Shown here: positions 9,165 through 26,860 of the stretch, in pieces
Position numbering within the stretch: position 1 is the first letter of the stretch
Layout: each line of letters starts with the position of its first letter
NCBI GenBank assembly: GCA_964016885.1
Contig: OZ024743.1
Span: 331,700,001-331,764,000, forward strand
Direction of reading: 5' to 3'
Source of the DNA: Eledone cirrhosa
Lineage: Eukaryota
DNA: 64,000 nucleotides
Position numbers and translations under genes: made by a program
Notes under the pieces: generated by a model
Databases searched by the model: none
Seen by the model: the letters and a program-made list of their open reading frames with translations, nothing else
Told to the model about the DNA's origin: nothing

Positions 9165-9259
9165 TATATATATAGACACACATAAACACACATATATATA
9201 TATATAGTAATATATAAGCAAACAAAGAATCAGTTTTGCATCTTATACATGTTTAATTG

Positions 9260-9349
9260 CATATTACATATGTTTCACTGTCAATCAGCTCAAGGAACGA
9301 TCTATTAATGACCGAATCTGACTCAGGAATCGAAAGCTCCTCAGAAATG
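9260..9349 (-). ncRNA. Type I hammerhead ribozyme motif (copy 1)
   Basis: Minus RNA CAUUU-CUGAGGA-GCU...AGU-GAAAC-AUAU-GUA-AUAUG; full catalytic core, palindromic stem III, one U-U mismatch in stem I. Confidence 0.65.
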
Positions 9350-9837
9350 TGTTAACATGTAGACTCGTGTCTGAGAGTGTCAGACGTGAGTCTACATGTA
9401 ATAATGTAAATAGTGTCTATAATTAGGTACTTGGACATCTTTTTCTTGGTTGCCTTCAGGAGTATAGAGAAACATCAGAGATTTTGAAGAATCTTAAAGA
9501 TTTAAAATAAAACTCAAACTTAAATTTGTTTCACATACTAGACAAACACATTTATATTTAAAAGTTTTAAGCAATTACATCAACCTCACTTCAATAATCA
9601 ATTTATCAGTCTATTTATGGAATGGCTAAATTCACCTATTGAGTTACAAACCTTTAGATGCCTCAGCAAAATTACATTTTTTTTTGCTTAACTTATGAGA
9701 TGACCTGTAAAATTTGACTTTAGATCACCAAGAAAAATTATATGAGGTGAGCTTACAACTGGGGGTCATCATAGAAAGCTATATGAAGTGACATATGAAC
9801 AGAAGTTGACTGGGTCTTAAAACCAACTTAAGTACCT

Positions 9838-12460: not shown

Positions 12461-12897
12461 TATGGAAGCACATGGCTTAGTGGTTAGAGCATTGGGCTTG
12501 CAATCGAAAGGTTGTGAGTTCAATTCTCAGACCGGGTGGTGTGTTGTTTCCTTGAGCAAGACACTTTATTTCACATTGCTCCAGTTTACTCAGCTGTAGA
12601 AATGAGATGATAGGGACTGGGGTCCTTATCATTCCACTGCAAAGTGGTCGTGGAGGTGCCACGGCAAAAAAGCACGCAGCACTCACTGTAAATGAGGTTG
12701 GTGTTAGGAAGGGCATCCATCTGTAGAAATCAAGCCAGAATCACTTCCCGTCCCACCCTTGCAAGCAGGGAAAAGTGGACGTAAAATGATGATGATGATA
12801 TATATATATATATATATACACACACATATATATATATATTGATGATGGCGATGACTTTGATACAAAGATACCTAAAGGGCTAGATGACATATGCGTC

Positions 12898-12991
<94 letters not shown>

Positions 12992-13296
12992 GAGGCACAT
13001 GGCTTAGTGGTTAGAGCATTGGCCTTGCAATCGAATGGTTGTGAGTTCAATTCTCAGACCGGGTGATGTGTTATTTCCTTGAGCAAGATACTTTATTTCA
13101 CATTGCTCCAGTTTACTCAATTGTAGAAATGAGATGATAGGGACTGGGGTCCCTATCATTCCACGGCAAAAAAGCACCCAGCACAAATGAGGTTGGTGTT
13201 AGGAAGGGCATCCAGCTGTAGAAATCAAGCCAGAATCAGTTCCCGTCCCACCCTTGCAAGCAGGGAAAACCGGATGTAAAATGAAATGATGAAATG

Positions 13297-13298
<2 letters not shown>
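12077..13298 (+). mobile_element. Three head-to-tail SINE A copies (12077-12417, 12463-12799, 12991-13298) separated by (TA)/(CA) microsatellites
   Basis: Each matches 8820-9164; the third has internal deletions. Confidence 0.92.
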
Positions 13299-13327
<29 letters not shown>

Positions 13328-13846
13328 TTTGTACCTATTGTGATTGACAATGCACTACCTACTAACCAAACAGTGCTACCAGATTTACACCAGAGAGAGT
13401 GTGTGAGTGAGTGTGTGTGTGTGTGTGTCTAATAATTTATACTACATAAATATTATCAGAAATGAAATTACAGCTATGACATAGAACAGAAAGACAAGAT
13501 TCAGGAGAAAGAGACACAAAGAGAAGAGACAGACAAGAAAATAACAGTTATAGAATATAATTGAGTAAAGAATGAGGAAATAACACAAAACATGAACTAC
13601 AAAACAAAGACAAAATGGAGTAGAAGTTTAAGACTAGAAAAATAGATGGTAGAAAACAGATGGTCATTGAGGAGGTCACAAAATGTGTGACAAAAACTAT
13701 CAATCAAGTGAAATTTATATGGTGTGTATGTTTCTTTCTATTGGCAATATTGGCAACATGACCATCCCTAAATATATGTGTAATAATACAGTTAGTTAAT
13801 CACCAACACTATTATATGCAGGATATAATAATAGTATACATATATA

Positions 13847-13932
<86 letters not shown>

Positions 13933-13985
13933 GTAATATATAAGGGAACAAAGAATCAATGTTGCATCATATACATATTTTATTT

Positions 13986-14074
13986 CATATTACATATGTT
14001 TCACTGTCGATCAGCTCGATGAACGATCTATTAATGATTAAAACTGAGTCTGGAATCGAAGCTCCTCAGATATG
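13986..14074 (-). ncRNA. Type I hammerhead ribozyme motif (copy 2)
   Basis: Minus RNA CAUAU-CUGAGGA-GCUUCGAU...AUCGACAGU-GAAAC-AUAU-GUA-AUAUG; 5-bp stem I, intact core, predicted cleavage between 13991 and 13990. Confidence 0.72.
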
Positions 14075-15538
14075 TGTTAACATGTAGACTCGTGTCTGAG
14101 AGTCTCAAACACGAGTCTACATGTTAACACATATCTGATACTCTACTCCCCAAAAGCATCAAGTGCTCATTCGGCAAACCACCTACGGATGCAATTAATT
14201 TGCATCTTTAATATGTGTGTGTGTGTGTGTGTGTGTGTAAAAGTTTAAGGCCAGGAAAAGGAGGAGGCACAAAACAGATAGTCATTGAGGTCAGAGAATG
14301 TGTGACAAAAGTACTGTCAAACAAATGAATAACGAACAATAAAAATGAAGTTAAAAATAAAGTGAAAATTATATGGTGTGTGTGTTTCTTTCTATTGGCA
14401 ATATTGACAACATAGCCATCCCCAAATATAACAATGAGGAAATAAATGTCCATATATTACCCCAGACAGTTAAACAGTGAGAAACAGGAACATTTTACAA
14501 GTAATTCTATGTCTACAACCAGCTCACTCACTCATATTTTTTATTACTGTTTTGTAATTTATTAGAGAAAGAACAACCAAAAACTTTTCCTTTAAACCTT
14601 TTGATATCAACCAAGCTGGAACAGTCTCTGGTTCTACAATACAAAAGGGTTTATATTTATCATAAACTATCCATCATATTCTTTGTTAAGCTATGTTGCA
14701 AACACCAGCTCAATAATGAAAAAGTTATATTACTAAATCCCTCCAAATTTGTTATTATTTTCAAGATAATTTAAAAGCCATAGGCAAGCTCTTTCATTAG
14801 AAATAGTATCTTTGATGAAAAAGTATCTTTATTAATAGTTCATTACCACTATCTATCTATATATCTATCTATATTAAATTCAATACTACAATGAAGACAT
14901 AACACAGAGAAACGCAAGAGTGCTTTACACCATGGATATCTTTACCAAACCATTACTATGTAATCACCCCACCAACGTCCTAACACCCGACCCCTAGATC
15001 TTCTTCCCCAATCCCCAAGTCCCCAATGCTGGGACACGTTGTCATAGTTTGAGACAAGACAGATCAGAGTGACCACATCTTGTTCATGTGTCCTATATTT
15101 GGCATGGGTTCTACACCTGGATGCCCTTCTTAATGCTAACCGCTCTATATATGCAGCCAGAGTGCTGACTTATTTTCAGTTTCATGTAGTACAGGACATT
15201 AAAGGTTGCTGCCCAGTCTTCTAATTTAGTTAGAAATAAATAGCTAAAATAGAATAGAGATTTATATCCTATTCTATCACCCATCTAACATAATTTGAGC
15301 TACATGGTCTGATGGTTAGGATGTTGTACTGACAATCATAATGACCAGATTTTGATTCACAAACCAAGTGACACATTGTGTTTTTGAGCATGACACTTCA
15401 ATTCACTTTCCTCCTGTTCACTCAAAAGAAAATGATGATGAACAGAAAATGATTACCAACAGCAGCTAGAGTCTAGTCCTGTAAAACGATATCTGGGGTC
15501 TTAAGGGGATGGGTGGGATGTATTCTCAGTTATTTTAA

Positions 15539-15770
15539 CCCTTTAGTCACTAGCCTGGTCAAACCGAGTTCTGGTTCTACGAAATAAAACCACCCATTTT
15601 AAAGGTTTCCAATTTAAATTAAAATCTCCCAATATAATTTTATATAAGAATTTTACATTAATTTACTGTCTTAGAAATGAAATAAATAATAATTTTTGTA
15701 AATCCCTCAAAATTATCAATTAATTAATTGAAATAGAGTGTATTTCATTAGAAATGTGGTCTTGAAAGGG
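15539..15770. mobile_element. piggyBac-type MITE (degenerate relative at ~14592-14830)
   Basis: TTAA-CCCTTT ... AAAGGG-TTAA termini. Confidence 0.7.
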
Positions 15771-15885
15771 TTAATGACATATTCTAGAATAAACTCCAGC
15801 TATCGTACACCATTTAGAGCATGAGAGAATCATTTTAGCCATTTAAAGACACACAAACCTGTTAACTTTATATTATATAGATCGA

Positions 15886-16188
15886 GGGCGGTGAATTGAC
15901 AGTATCAGTAGAAGGTCTGACACGATGCTTTGCAGCATAGAGTTACACCCCTTTATGATCTGAGTTCAAATCCCGTTAAGGTTAACTTTGCCTTTCATCC
16001 TTACAGGGTCGATAAAATTAAGTACCAGTAATGCACTGGGATAATTGCTGGCCTTGTGCCAAAAGTAGAAACAATTATATATATCGAGGTTAACTTTGCC
16101 TTTCATCCTTACAGGGTCGATAAAATAAAGTACCAGTAATACACTGGGGTATTTGCTGGCCTTGTGCCAAAAGTAGAAACAATTATAT
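15886..16188 (+). mobile_element. SINE family B with tandemly duplicated 3' half
   Basis: Full copy to ~16078, then a repeat of GAGGTTAACTTTGCC...GTAGAAACAATTA. Confidence 0.88.
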
Positions 16189-16361
16189 ATAAAGTTTATC
16201 CCAAGTTCAATCGGGGGTAACCACAGTAAGTAAACTACTCAATACATAGCAATACATATATATATGTTTTTGGTAATTCCGAAGAAAAAGCAAAAGAAAA
16301 AAGAGTGCTCTATCTATAGAACAGAGCTATTAAATTAGAAAGTGAACAACACAAAATATAA

Positions 16362-16435
16362 CTACTCCATTACCAAAGGTTTCAGTACCCTAGACAATAT
16401 TAATATATGTCTGGATCGTTCATCAGACAGAATAG
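16362..16435 (-). ncRNA. Type I hammerhead ribozyme motif (copy 3, different family) inside the 16334-16466 foldback
   Basis: Minus RNA CUAUUCUGU-CUGAUGA-A...CCAGACA-loop-UGUCUAG...U-GAAACC-UUU-GGUA-AUGGAGUAG; 9-bp stem I including G-U pairs. Confidence 0.62.
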
Positions 16436-16551
16436 AGTAACTATATATTGTTATTCACTTTCTAATCAAATATATATACATCTCATTATCATCACCGTTT
16501 AATGTCCATTTTTCCATGTTAGCATGGGTTGTATATCTATATACAACAGGT

Positions 16552-16785
16552 AATAATTGTTTCTACTTTAGGCACAAGGCCAGCAATTACCCAGTGCATT
16601 ACTGGTACTTTATTTTATCGACCCCGTAAGGATGTAAGGCAAAGTCAACCTCGGCGGTATTTGAACTCAGATCATAAAGGGACGTAACTATGCTGGAAAG
16701 CATGGCGTCCGACCCTCTACCGATACTGCCAATCCACCACCCTAGCATGGCGTCCGACCCTCTACCGATACTGCCAATCCACCGT
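16552..16785 (-). mobile_element. SINE family B with duplicated head segment
   Basis: Matches the family B consensus; 16744-16785 repeats the head. Confidence 0.88.
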
Positions 16786-16921
16786 AATAATGATATATAT
16801 AAAGTAAACAGATTTTTTATGTTTTTAAAATAGGCTAAAATAAATCTTCATGGATGTAATTGATTTAGTTTGAACACATGGTCTCAGGTCAAGTCATTTG
16901 ACAGACATGTACAACTCTGAA

Positions 16922-17098
<177 letters not shown>

Positions 17099-17250
17099 AG
17101 GCAGACACACATCTATATAAATATATATACACATATATACTTATATACATATATATATATATAGTAATAATAATAAATGTGAAGACTAAAATCCAAAGAG
17201 GGCTCAATAAGGATAAATATATATCAAATATATAAGAACCCTAGAGCAAA

Positions 17251-17374
17251 TATTTATTAAAATAATAGATTAAAGTTTAAGCAAAGAATCGCTGCTTTCA
17301 CCCTTCAGAAGATCCCGTTATGGGTGAAAGCAGCAATTCTTTGCTTTAACTTTAATCTGTTATTTTAATAAATA
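17251..17374. repeat. Inverted repeat with 53-bp arms and an 18-nt loop
   Basis: 17251-17303 is the near-perfect reverse complement of 17322-17374. Confidence 0.9.
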
Positions 17375-17382
17375 TAATTATA

Positions 17383-17717
17383 TCATCATCATCGTTTTAC
17401 GTCCGCTTTTCCCTGCTTGCAAGGTTGGGACGGGAACTGATTCTGGCTTGATTTCTACAGCTGGATGCCCTTCCTAACACCATAACACCAACCTCATTTA
17501 CAGTAAATGCTGGGTGCTTTTTTTCCGTGGCACCTACACGACCATTTTGGAATGATAGGGACCCCAGTCCTATCATCTCATTTCTACAGCTGAGTTAACT
17601 GGAGCAATGTGAAATAAAGTGTCTTGCTCAAAGAAACAACACATCACCCGGTCTGAGAATTGAACTCAACTTTTCGATTGCAAGGCCAATGCTCTAACCA
17701 CTAAGCCATGTGCCTCC
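17383..17717 (-). mobile_element. SINE family A
   Basis: Reverse complement of the 8820-9164 consensus. Confidence 0.9.
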
Positions 17718-17721
17718 ATAT

Positions 17722-19550
17722 ATCATCATCATCATCATCATCATCATCATTTAACGTCCATCTTCCGCGCTTGCATGGGTTTGGACGGGAGTTTTCCCAC
17801 TTGAGGCAAGAGTGGTTGTCTTGCTCGTATAGGACTGTCTGGCGGGTTTTCTACGGCTGGATGCCCTTCCTAACACCAACCACGTTTACAGTGTGGACTG
17901 GGAGGTTTTTACCGCGTTACCTACACGGCCACATTACAGCGTGGACTGTGTGTATTTTTGGCGTGACACCTACACGACCTCATTTGTTTCGGACTGGATG
18001 TTGTGGTACCAACATAACTTTACATTGAAAGGGGTGGTGTGGATGGGATGGAGGTAGTGGGACGGGGGTGTATTTTTGTTAGAGGTGCCTACTGACTGTA
18101 GTAGGTTTCACTTTGTACTTAGGTAAGGCGAGTCTTCTGTATTACTGTGTAACGCCAAAGATCTCGGTCCAGTGACATTGTCTTGGAGAGGTGTAAGTGT
18201 GTGAGGTCGGAATTTATCAGGTCGTCCCAGGTTTTTCTGGGTCTTCCTACTCCATGGCTACCTTCTATTTTTATTGCCCTGCACTTTTTTATACAGCTGT
18301 CGTCTTTCATGCGCATCACATGACCGTACCAACGTAGTCTTCTCTCAAGTAAACAACATCTGATCCCTCTTATTCCTAATTTCTCCCTTAGTTCGTTTGT
18401 GCTTTGCCGTTCACGTATATTACTATTACACCTCCAGCGGAGCATGCATGCTTCGTTCCTCTCCAGTTTGCGTATATCCTCTGCACACAATGCCCAGGTC
18501 TCACTGCCATGTAACATTGCTGTTAGTATGCAGGCATCATACAGCCTGCCTTTTATTTTTAGGGAAAACCCTTTAGCGGCTAATAGTGGTATAAGCTCTC
18601 TGAACTTTTTCCATCCAGTTCTGACTCTAGCTACTGTACTTTCAGAGCACCCTCCTCCACTGCTGATTTTGTCACCCAGGTAACAGAAGGTGTCCACTAT
18701 TTCTGTAGTACCATCTGTGCAATGGAATGAGCTAGTATTCTGTGGGCACTTGCTGCTACTTATTGCACCAGAGCACTGGCCACATATAAAATCTATATTC
18801 TTAGTTAGCTTACCTGTGATCCCACTACATCTTTTATATACCCATACTTTGCATTTGGGACATAAAATGGAGTTTCTGCCTACTCCTTTCCTACACACTG
18901 AGCATGGCCATTTCCCGGATGGGATCGGTGCCCTATTTTCTTTCCTACAAACTAGAACTTTAGTCTGAGACAGGTTAATTTTAAGGCCTTTTGATTCTAG
19001 GCCATGCTTCCATGTTTGGAATTTCTTCTCTAGTTCGGCCATTGATTCAGCTATGAGCGTTAGATCATCTGCGTATAGGAGTTCCAATGGGCAGCTGGTC
19101 TTGAACTCTTCTGTTTTAGCCTGAAGGGCAATAATAAATAGTAGGGGGCTAAGAACGGAGCCCTGATGAACACCAACTTTTATGGTAAACTCTATATTCG
19201 TTGTTAATTCTAACCTTGCTGACTGTTTCTTTATACATGGCTTGTATAGCTCTCACAAGCCATTCATCAACACCTAGTTTTCTAAGAGCCCACCAGATAA
19301 TGGAATGGGGGACTCTGTCAAAGGCTTTCTCCAAGTCGACAAAAGCTAAGTATAGGGGTTTACTTTTAGCTAGCTACTTCTCCTGTAGTTGTCGTACAAT
19401 GAAAAGAGCGTCTGTGGTGCTTTTACCTGACACAAACCCGAACTGCATTTCATCTAGATCAATTCGCTCTCTGATTAGTTGCGCTATTACTTTTTCTGTG
19501 ACCTTCATGACCTGGTCAATTAATTTAATGCCTCTATAGTTACCTCTATC
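17722..19550 (-). mobile_element. 5'-truncated, frameshifted RTE-clade LINE (RT, PHD-like Cys insert, C-terminus, 3' UTR, (GAT)n tail)
   Basis: ORF fragments GNYRGIKL...QFGF, DLEKAFDRVP, ELLYADDL, WPCSVCRKGVGRNSILCPKCKVW, ERRLRWYGHVMRM...GRPRKTW. Confidence 0.95.
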
Positions 19551-19769
19551 TATATATATATATATATTATATATATATAAATACATATACACACACACAC
19601 ATATATATATATACATATATATACACACAAACATATATATATATATACACACGTAGAAACAGAGAAAGACACATATTTCAAGGGAAATAGTAAACTATGA
19701 GATAATTGACTATTGATGCATGTGTTGATTTGTTAAAGATATGTTCCTGATGTACAATTTGTGTAGTAC

Positions 19770-20280
19770 CATGTGTAGCACCACCACCACTGCCATCATC
19801 ACCACCACTATTACCACCATCATCACCACCACCATTGCCACCATCACCATTAGAACCACCACCACCAAACCACCATCACCACAACTGCCACCACCAAACA
19901 ACCATCACCACCTAACCACCACCATCATCATCACCACCATTACCACCATCACCATTAGAACCACCACCACCAAAACAACTGCAACCACCAAACCACCATC
20001 ACCACCACCACCTAACCACCACCATCACCACCACCACTGCCACCATCACCACTAGAACCACCATCACCACCACCACAACTGCCACCACCAAACCACCATC
20101 ACCACTACCACCACTAAACCACCATCACCACCACCACCATCACTGCCACCATCACCATCACCACCACCACTGCCACCATCACCACTAGAACCACCACCAC
20201 TGCCACCATCACCACCACCACCACTGCCACTGTCACCACCACCACTGCCACCATCACCATCACCAAACCACCACCACCAT
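19770..20280 (+). repeat. (CAC/CAT)n low-complexity tract
   Basis: Directly visible. Confidence 0.95.
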
Positions 20281-20468
20281 GTACATGGAGGTGCAATAGA
20301 CATAATTCAGTTCCTGACATCTTCAGGTTAAAGAATATAACTCAGCAAAGAAACAAAATTCCCAGTTTATCAAGTGTAAAAATATAATTTCTTACCAATT
20401 ATCAGAGCAAATGTTAAATGTTATAGAAAAAACTACTTGTTTATATCATTACTGTACATGTATGTGCG

Positions 20469-20573
<105 letters not shown>

Positions 20574-23482: not shown

Positions 23483-25015
23483 ATCATCATCATCATCATC
23501 ATCATCAACGTTTAACGTCCGTGTTCCACGCTTGCATGGGTTTGGACGGGGGTAGTCCCACTTGAAGCAAGAGTGATTGTCTTGCTCGCATAGGACTGTC
23601 TGGCAGGTTTTCTACAGTTGGATGCCCTTCCTAACACCAACCACATTTACAGTGTGGGTCTGGGACGTTTTTACCGTGTTGCCTACACGGCCACATTACA
23701 GCGTGGACTGTGTGTTTTTTTTTCGTGACACCTACACGATCTCATTTGTTTCGGCCTGGATGGCGCGGCACCAACATAACTTTACATAGAACGGGGTGGT
23801 GTGGATGGAGTGGGGGTGGTGGTGGTGGGACGGGGTGTATTTGGTTAGAGATGCCTACTGGCTGGAGTAGGTTTTACTATATATTTAGGTAAGGCGGGTC
23901 TTCTCTGTTACTGAGTACCGCCAAAGGTCTCGGTCCAGTGACATTGTCTTGGAGAGGTGTAAGTGTGTGATGTCGGAGTTTATCAGCTCGTCCCAGGTTT
24001 TTCTAGGTCTGCCTATTCCGTGACTACCGTCTATCTTTATTGCCCTGCACTTTGTTATACAGCTATCGACTTTCATGCGCATCACGTGTCCATACCAACG
24101 TAGCCTTCTCTCGAGTAAACAACATCTGATCCCTCTTATCTCTAATTTTTTCCTTAGTTCGTTTATGCTTTGCCGTTCACGTATATTACTGTTACACATC
24201 CAGCGGAGCATGCAAGCTTCGTTCCTCTCTAGTCTGCGTATATCCTCTGCACACAATGCCCAGGTCTCACTGCCATGCAGCATTGCTGTTCGTATGCAGG
24301 CATCGTACAACCTGCCTTTCATTTTTAGGGAGAACCCTTTAGCAGCTAATAGTGGTATAAGCTCTCTGAACTTTTTCCAACCAGTTCTGACTCTAGCTAC
24401 AGTACTTTCAGAGCACCCTCCCCCACTGCTGATTTTATCGCCCAGGTAACGGAAGCTGTCCACTATTTCTATAGAACCCTCTGCGCAATTGAAAGAGCTA
24501 GTATTTTGTGGGCACTTGCTGCTACTTATTGCACCAGAACACCGGCCACATGTAAAATCTATGTTCTTAGTTAGCTTACCTGTGATCCCACTACATCTTT
24601 TATGCACCCATACTTTGCATTTAGGACATAAAATGGAGTTTCTACCTACGCCTTTCCTACACACCGAGCACGACCATTTCCCAGAAGGGATCGCCGCCTT
24701 GTTTTCTTTCCTACAAACTAGAACTTTGGTCTTAGCCAGGTTAATTTTAAGTCCTTTTGACTCTAGGCCGTGCTTCCATGTTTGGAATTTCTTCTCTAGC
24801 TCGGCCATTGATTCCGCTATGAGTGTCAGGTCGTCTGCGTATAGGAGTTCCCATGGGCAGCCTGTCTTGAACTCCTCTGTTATAGCCTGAAGGGCAATAA
24901 TAAATAGTAGGGGGCTGAGAACAGAGCCCTGATGGACGCCAACTTTTACGCTAAACTCTTCACTATATTCGTTGTTAATTCTAACCTTGCTGACTGTTTT
25001 TTATACATGGCTTGT
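23483..25015 (-). mobile_element. 5'-truncated RTE LINE, same family as 17722-19550
   Basis: ORF 23885-24808 plus upstream GVHQGSVLSP and YADD; 3' UTR and (GAT)n tail. Confidence 0.95.
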
Positions 25016-25752: not shown

Positions 25753-26723
25753 TATCATCATCATCATCATCATCGTTTAACGTCCATCTTCCACGCTAGC
25801 ATGGGTTTGGACGGGAATTTTCCCACTTGAGGCAAGATTGTTTGTCTTGCTCGTATAGGACTGTCTGGTAGGTTTTCTACGGCTGGATGCCCTTCCTAAC
25901 ACCAACCACGTTTACAGTGTGGACTGGGAGGTTTTTACTGTGTTACCTACACGACCACATTACAGCGTGGACCATGTGTTTTTTTGTCGTGACACCTACA
26001 CGCACTTATTTGTTTAGGACTGGATGTTGTGGTACCAACATAGCTTTACATTGGAAGGGTGGTGTGGATGGGGTGGGGGTTGTGGAGCCGGGGGTGTATT
26101 TTTGTTAAAGGTGCCTACTGACTGTAGGTTTCGCTTTATACTTAGGCAAGGCGGGTCTTCTGTATTACTGTGTATCACCAAAGATGTCGGTCCAGTGATA
26201 TTGTCTTGGAGAGGTGTAAGTGTGTGAGGTTGGAATTTAGCAAGTTGTCCCAGGTTTTTCTGGGTCTGCCTACTCCGTGGCTACTGTCTATTTTTATCGC
26301 CCTGCATTTTTTTATACAGCTGTCGTTTTTCATGCGCATCACGTGACCGTACCAACGTAGTCTTCTCTCGAGTAAACAACATCTGATCCCTCTTATTCCT
26401 AATTTCTCCCTTAGTTCGTTTATGCTTTGCCGTTCACGTATATTACTATTACACATCCAGCGGAACATGCATGCTTCGTTCCTCTCTAGTCTGCGTATAT
26501 CCTCTGCACACAATGCCCAGGTCTCACGGCCATGCAACATTGCTGTTCCTATACAGGCATCATACAGCCTGCCTTTCATTTTTAGTGAGAACCCTTTAGC
26601 GGCTAATAGTGGTATAAGCTCTCTGAACTTTTTCCATCCCGCTCTGACATCTAGATCAATTCGCTCTCTGATTAGTTGCACTATTACTTTTTCAGTGACC
26701 TTCATGACCTGGTCGATTAATTT
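25753..26723 (-). mobile_element. RTE LINE copy with a large internal deletion
   Basis: ORF 26175-26705 fuses ...IRERIDLD to VRAGWKKFREL, skipping the RT core. Confidence 0.92.
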
Positions 26724-26860
26724 AAGATTCGATTAATCCTGATATACAGGCTGAAATGAGAAGGCTCAACAAAGACTGGCATATAGGTTCAACTATGATT
26801 GACACACAGAATCACAGAGGTGTAACTAATACTTTTAAGCTCAACAAAGACTGAAATACA

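Follow-up and report, generated by a model that had tools for sequence, protein, structure and literature searches.

A type I hammerhead motif lies on the minus strand, at 16426-16371, of the window, the 64,000-nucleotide stretch of Eledone cirrhosa DNA analysed here. The locus is likely a worn copy of a high-copy hammerhead family, in which the truncated 3' end of a Penelope-like element (PLE), a pseudo-LTR stub, appears to have been inserted head to head into a (TA)n microsatellite, and the copy is predicted not to cut efficiently. Its parts are arranged as follows, the 3' boundary of the sense copy being approximate (16266-16272):

16252..16265, no strand: (TA)n microsatellite at the 3' end of the sense copy, the likely target, which the family letters turn into a purer TA run
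16266..16431, minus strand: sense copy, made up of the hammerhead and ca. 100 nt of AT-rich 3' sequence, the putative 3' stub of a Penelope-like element (from depth and contig pieces)
16366..16370, minus strand: helix I 3' strand, the first bases past the predicted cut
16371..16383, minus strand: GAAA, 3-bp helix III with UUU loop, GUA triplet and predicted cut at 16371/16370
16384..16419, minus strand: helix II region of 36 nt, bulged at 16390 and AU-rich in its loop
16420..16426, minus strand: catalytic core CUGAUGA (C3-A9), with no variant among the 40 of 128 variant rows listed
16427..16431, minus strand: helix I 5' strand of the family, 5 bp (U-A, G·U, U·G, C-G and U-A with 16370-16366); family coverage ends at 16431
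16431..16472, plus strand: foldback arm, an inverted, 5'-truncated duplicate of the family from 16371/16370 to 16328 (from alignment and depth)
16470..16478, no strand: (TA)n microsatellite at the outer end of the inverted arm, the likely target

The motif, which occurs once in the window, carries the core positions C3-U4-G5-A6-N7-G8-A9, G12-A13-A14, A15.1-U16.1 and H17 that define type I membership. The preliminary description of this DNA had placed a canonical CUGAUGA on the minus strand at 16426-16420, followed by GAAACC, UUU and GGUA, and these readings hold, with GAAACC at 16383-16378 and GGUA at 16374-16371; the cut that it predicted at 16371/16370 would fit the GUA ending at 16371. Helix I and helix III directly adjoin the core, the former with 5 family bp (9 with the arm) and the latter with three Watson-Crick pairs. 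The 9-bp stem I with wobbles described earlier does exist (16435-16427 against 16362-16370, with three G·U pairs), but only five of its nine pairs belong to the family, the outer 4 bp being contributed by the arm. Both strands of the described stem II, CCAGACA/UGUCUAG, are likewise present, but they are interrupted by a C16413·A16391 mismatch and do not abut the core, with C·C and G·A lying between. Read from base to tip, helix II at 16384-16419 consists of A-U, C·C, G·A, three pairs, the bulge, C·A (16413/16391) and five pairs, the helix being weaker than first described.

A loose type I descriptor, written after the motif had been seen, matched two loci in the window, namely the 16426-16371 core and copy 2 of family 1, the first hammerhead family of this DNA, while copy 1 of that family was missed. 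The null expectation of this descriptor was 0.027 loci per window, with at least one match in 4 of 150 Markov nulls. The 133-mer around the hammerhead folds with z = -6.8. The core consensus and type I topology are those of Hammerhead_1 (RF00163), but the locus differs from that family in having no Rfam match: at the gathering score the whole window gave a single tRNA-like match and no hammerhead, and at E<=10 none of the 14 matches in 13500-17000 was a hammerhead. As an observation apart, the helix II apical loops of all three hammerheads (16397-16406, ~14027-14032 and ~9300) each contain a palindrome, of 10 nt at 16397-16406 and ATTAAT in both family-1 copies, and one contig of run X2 has a shorter apical loop; these could be kissing or dimer motifs, or chance in AT-rich sequence.

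The hammerheads of PLE pseudo-LTRs combine a short helix I with a long helix II and occur mostly as solitary motifs (PMC4209133). The motif shares with them the type I topology, the CUGAUGA/GAAA/GUH core, a 5-bp helix I and a long helix II with a mid-helix bulge, the last resembling the D. virilis variant; in both cases the copies are dispersed and solitary and fall into subfamilies by sequence (Cervera and de la Pena 2014, PMC4209133). The stub differs from those described in that paper in its 36-nt helix II region, in the A-U pair (or mismatch) followed by C·C at the core, and in that no linked ORF was found. Of the hallmarks of the PLE minimal hammerhead (min-HHR), the short helix I (4-5 bp) with long helix II is present (PMC4209133). 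An extra nucleotide after A9, followed by G10.1-C11.1, is not seen, and two bases per side lie between the first family G-C pair and the core; nor is there a minimal palindromic, dimer-forming helix III/loop 3, the locus having 3 bp and a non-self-complementary UUU. Because these two hallmarks fail and no PLE ORF was found linked to the repeat, the copy is filed as a likely PLE-derived type I hammerhead stub and not as a min-HHR.

The earlier suggestion of a second ribozyme-bearing family, against which a single-copy sequence without covariation would have spoken, agrees with what was found: runs X1, X2 and X5 show the unit at high copy, and its helix II varies with pairing preserved. Four of the seven listed sequencing runs were mapped to 16200-16550 at 80% likeness, with ~6,600 records mapped per run, two flanking repeats included; X1 and X2 are contigs from one sample, and X5 consists of RAD reads from a separate study. 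Coverage in these three runs is deep from ~16252 to 16431, where several contig pieces stop. Contig depth in X1 is 5,475 over 16416-16427 and reaches 224,673 over 16356-16367, depth not being copy number, while raw-read depth in X5 is ~255 over the 5' core (16416-16427) and ~700 just past the cut (16356-16367). The 16252-16431 unit is thus a high-copy family, to which these depths assign no copy number. No listed piece spans the locus, and X1/X2 may therefore represent another individual or a sister species. Run X4 (organism B, small share) gave three mapped records, enough only to note a relative; one of them covers 16315-16383 with one differing letter. A fixed 5' end of the family at 16431 was considered and set aside, since the ending of 7 of the 12 listed inverted joints at 16430/16431 may mark only the limit of likeness between reference and family.

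Beyond these runs, a scan for the family gave no matches in the metagenome collection, none in viral contigs and none, on two occasions, in prokaryote genomes. Two metagenome matches to a gapped pattern (L001 and L002) were rejected as chance, neither carrying, by eye, the family helix II or downstream sequence; in L001 the match is a tandem repeat next to a gene fragment, and in L002 it falls in AT-rich, coding-like sequence. The latter stretch (L002:1300-1900, minus strand) is apparently interrupted by TAG and, judged by eye only, possibly belongs to a phage with a recoded stop. The literature search returned no description of the hammerhead family and, for squid, Rfam counts only, among them 235 Rfam hammerhead matches in the giant squid genome (PMC6962438); in the O. 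vulgaris repeat paper the word 'ribozyme' is absent from the main text. It is likely a further Penelope-type family with a hammerhead in an animal genome, such elements having already been described in many animals.

The hammerhead had also been described as enclosed by an inverted repeat. The 13-nt repeat in question (16466-16454/16346-16334) is present, but it is longer in truth and is not a terminal repeat of the family. At 16431-16472 the arm repeats 16371-16328 in inverted orientation, with 79.5% identity over about 42-44 nt; its register sets 16431 against 16371 (12/15 identical), and the base at 16431 fits either copy. The arm therefore starts, within one base, at the predicted cut site. 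Depth over 16440-16463 is ~15-41 in X1/X2 and 0 in X5, and this near-zero coverage marks the arm as specific to the locus and not a family terminal repeat. The foldback is probably a by-product of insertion at this locus and no part of the ribozyme. A greater divergence of the arm than of the sense copy (~6 against 1 of 44 by hand count) was entertained and dropped, being not significant (p=0.11).

Inverted joints recur in other copies of the family. Opposite-strand joints make up 12 of the 15 joints listed (26 in all) and run from 16284-16398 to 16403-16442 at varied positions; three of the 12 start within 16369-16373 (nominal p=0.013, for an interval chosen post hoc). Measured from the cut, the sense copy of the analysed locus extends for ~101 nt and the arm for 43 nt, leaving a one-sided extension of ~58 nt. 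For PLE insertions, an inverted 5'-truncated copy, a tail of 30-40 bp at one end and, in some clades, (TA)n targets have been described (PMC8557442), pseudo-LTRs in head-to-head arrangement are known from PLEs (PMC3846280), and in Anolis the PLE protein uses two internal start sites to extend both strands of the target (PMC11167929). The head-to-head inverted copy, the extension at one end and the (TA)n on both sides are common to the locus and to the insertions in these three papers (Craig et al. 2021, Arkhipova et al. 2013 and Frangieh et al. 2024, respectively). The locus differs in being a ~200 bp stub without an ORF and in the length of its extension, ~58 nt against 30-40 (PMC8557442). 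The inverted joints with their (TA)n ends are, by this analogy, the published PLE insertion anatomy: a head-to-head, 5'-truncated inverted copy is found at the analysed locus as well as in the 12 of 15 listed joints elsewhere, and (TA)n stands at both outer ends, an observation of modest weight as (TA)n is common in the window.

The PLE origin of the stub is read from this anatomy and from the hammerhead type. No PLE protein gene (telomerase-like reverse transcriptase with GIY-YIG) was found beside the analysed copy. In a Pfam scan of 26 of the 69 frames in 12500-20500, only a frame with RVT_1 and PHD matched (18122-19252, 1.7 kb away), with no GIY-YIG. Consensus sequences of octopus Naiad, a PLE with (TA)n preference, are given in the supplement of PMC8557442, in which the four unit motifs GAAACCTTTGG, GGTAATGGAG, TTCACTTTCTAAT and TGATGAACGATC were not found, although a line break could hide a match.

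Alternatively, the unit might spread via small (circular) RNA, either as a non-LTR retrozyme or as a SINE-like unit with a hammerhead, and the locus would then be a dispersed monomer. Animal retrozymes carry type I hammerheads, also in mussel (PMC7229834), and have been proposed to derive from PLE pseudo-LTRs (10.64898/2026.07.22.740005). With them the unit shares its non-coding nature, its high copy number and a type I core, here with a stable 3-bp helix III; it has no ORF. Unlike retrozymes, it does not stand head to tail, with no tandem copy in the window, where it occurs once, and conserved loop 1/loop 2 contacts were not recognised. Furthermore, among the 15 of 26 joints listed none goes back within the unit and the 12 inverted ones dominate, which is the anatomy of PLEs. 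We regard this alternative as unlikely.

Under the preferred reading, that of a PLE stub, the reverse transcriptase/endonuclease of a PLE, acting in trans, would have made two cDNAs of the RNA, both begun at the 3' end. One would extend to 16431, a little upstream of the core, and the other would end at the cut site (16371/16370); the two, joined head to head, would have been inserted, likely into a (TA)n microsatellite. Self-priming by fold-back is a possible alternative step and would leave identical anatomy. In the parent element the hammerhead may have served to trim the precursor RNA after GUA, a role that has been proposed for the hammerheads of PLEs.

The figures that follow on variation in helix II rest on the 40 of 128 variant rows listed, among which no variant falls in the core, helix I or helix III. 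At 16386 a C is found in 97-99% of the family, supported by 111 contigs in X1 and by reads from 64 start places in X5, and it gives a G16417-C16386 pair where the analysed copy has G·A. G at 16391 (38-46%), A at 16388 (39-47%) and A at 16384 (35-43%) have matching frequencies and are carried together by one X2 contig, which suggests two subfamilies. U at 16413, present in 31-63%, would pair with A16391, and one X2 contig has that 5' strand; the family would then have U-A or C-G at 16413/16391, where the analysed copy has C·A. G at 16408 is found in 50-66% and C at 16396 in one contig, which suggests a compensatory change from A-U to G-C at 16408/16396. In addition, U16415 is able to pair with either G or A at 16388 (U·G against U-A). 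The tally thus stands at two apparent two-sided changes and one one-sided change, drawn from unlinked frequency tables and two contigs. The family letters would mend two helix II mismatches of the analysed copy, and they suggest two compensatory pairs. Such pair-preserving variation appears to be real support for the family's helix II, though it comes from unlinked frequencies and two single contigs.

The base of helix II is another matter. C16418 is found in 94-95% of X1/X2 and in 72% of X5 and faces C16385, where no variant is listed, and pairing at 16419/16384 is possible in only ~60%, followed by C·C and then, in the family, by G-C. The base of the helix therefore looks non-canonical in the family as well. 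As natural hammerheads with weak or mismatched helix II bases are known (PMC3088659, PMC7229834), the family C·C lowers the expected activity but does not exclude it.

In the lowest-energy fold of the analysed copy the arm, and not the helix I strand, pairs with the bases past the cut site. The active fold costs 8.8 kcal/mol with the arm, 5.8 for the 66-nt family part and 2.5 for a 74-nt fragment (16435-16362). Since copy 2 of family 1, taken as comparator, costs 6.8 kcal/mol, the energy model seems to penalise hammerheads generally, and only the extra ~3 kcal/mol counts. On this model the arm would compete with the active fold. Private helix II changes together with the competing arm would likely inactivate the hammerhead at 16266-16472, and the analysed copy is probably no longer cutting.

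The same energies bear on the idea that the locus is an active ribozyme co-opted by the host, the long foldback serving as a switch or as an extended helix I. Every core nucleotide is intact, the 74-nt fragment with the 9-bp stem I lies only 2.5 kcal/mol from the active fold, and all five transitions in the arm, read from the alignment, yield G·U and not A·C on the minus strand. The mismatches in helix II are private to this copy, however, the active register with the arm costs more than either the family part or the family-1 comparator, and conservation of the locus was not seen in the mapped runs, all of which make co-option very unlikely. A MITE-like foldback DNA element with terminal inverted repeats, its hammerhead core a chance match, would account for the strong hairpin and the lack of an Rfam hammerhead match, but it is largely refuted and highly improbable, given that the arm lies outside the family (near-zero depth), that the family extends ~60-75 nt beyond the other arm, that the descriptor null is low and that helix II variation preserves pairing.

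Returning to the PLE stub, the position of the arm start raises a further idea, namely that the family's non-canonical helix II hammerhead still self-cleaves in vivo and that the cleaved 3' product serves as template. We hold this to be quite unlikely. The joints at the cut site could equally reflect stalling of the polymerase at structure, microhomology of 1-2 nt or selection among the rows listed. In the literature examined there is no demonstration of PLE ribozyme cleavage in cells; the Anolis study reports that RNA-seq ends were not found at the site and that cleavage was not required in vitro (PMC11167929). If the idea were true, arms starting at the cut site would preserve in the genome a fossil record of cleavage by PLE ribozymes. 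The family would matter more were arm junctions truly enriched there. A family of such high copy number would permit a well-powered test of PLE hammerhead cutting in cells and would also show how far helix II may depart from the consensus.

Family 1 (9200-9410 and 13930-14140, minus strand) has a cleaner PLE-type hammerhead, with CUGAGGA, a very long helix II and a dimer-type helix III that has the palindrome ACAUAUGU. Just upstream stands a long hairpin whose junction is the same in the two copies, and the 3' end is followed by (TA)n; helix I of copy 1 is weakened. The two families had been thought possibly related through a short sequence:

14018..14028, plus strand: 11-mer common to the hammerhead, antisense within helix II of copy 2 of family 1 and not conserved in the other copy

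This 11-mer is indeed present at 16424-16414 (minus) and 14018-14028 (plus), but it is absent from copy 1, and the 14018-14028 occurrence is probably not part of the 16266-16431 element. Tested against shuffles, it gave p=0.003 for the copy-2 core and 0.01 for the whole unit, values uncorrected for four post hoc comparisons, and a BLAST E of 5.3 in the window. It is the only signal of relatedness and a weak one; with copy 1 the match is 8 nt long (p=0.087), and alignments on the same strand fall short of significance. The two families may plausibly share a PLE ancestry. The suggestion that family 1 holds a decayed hammerhead of opposite polarity found nothing in its favour: neither copy has CUGANGA or a U3-A8 variant on the plus strand, and the plus strand of copy 2 (13930-14140) has no GAAA.

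The window as a whole is AT-rich animal DNA, rich in microsatellites, tRNA-related SINE-like repeats and LINE fragments, a repeat landscape like that of octopus genomes. Truncated at their 5' ends, LINE copies lie at 18119-19252, 23885-25000 and 26175-26732 (minus strand); the first two are open over ~370 codons, and the one scanned (18119-19252) has RVT_1 followed by a PHD-finger-like insert. Immediately beside the (TA)n tracts, short pieces of two other very high-copy repeats are found at 16205-16251 and 16483-16530, with depths of up to ~900,000 and 160,000, respectively. The element is further bracketed by two opposed copies of a ~190-bp repeat (15885-16191 and 16551-16744), unrelated to the hammerhead unit, one of which has a 105-bp tandem duplication; the two form a much larger potential hairpin around the hammerhead, and at least 7 further copies, 84-96% identical, are present in the window. 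Around the whole cluster, weak inverted arms (72-89%) at 15826-15873 and 16797-16847, ~950 nt apart, may be the ends of an old DNA element into which the insertions came later.
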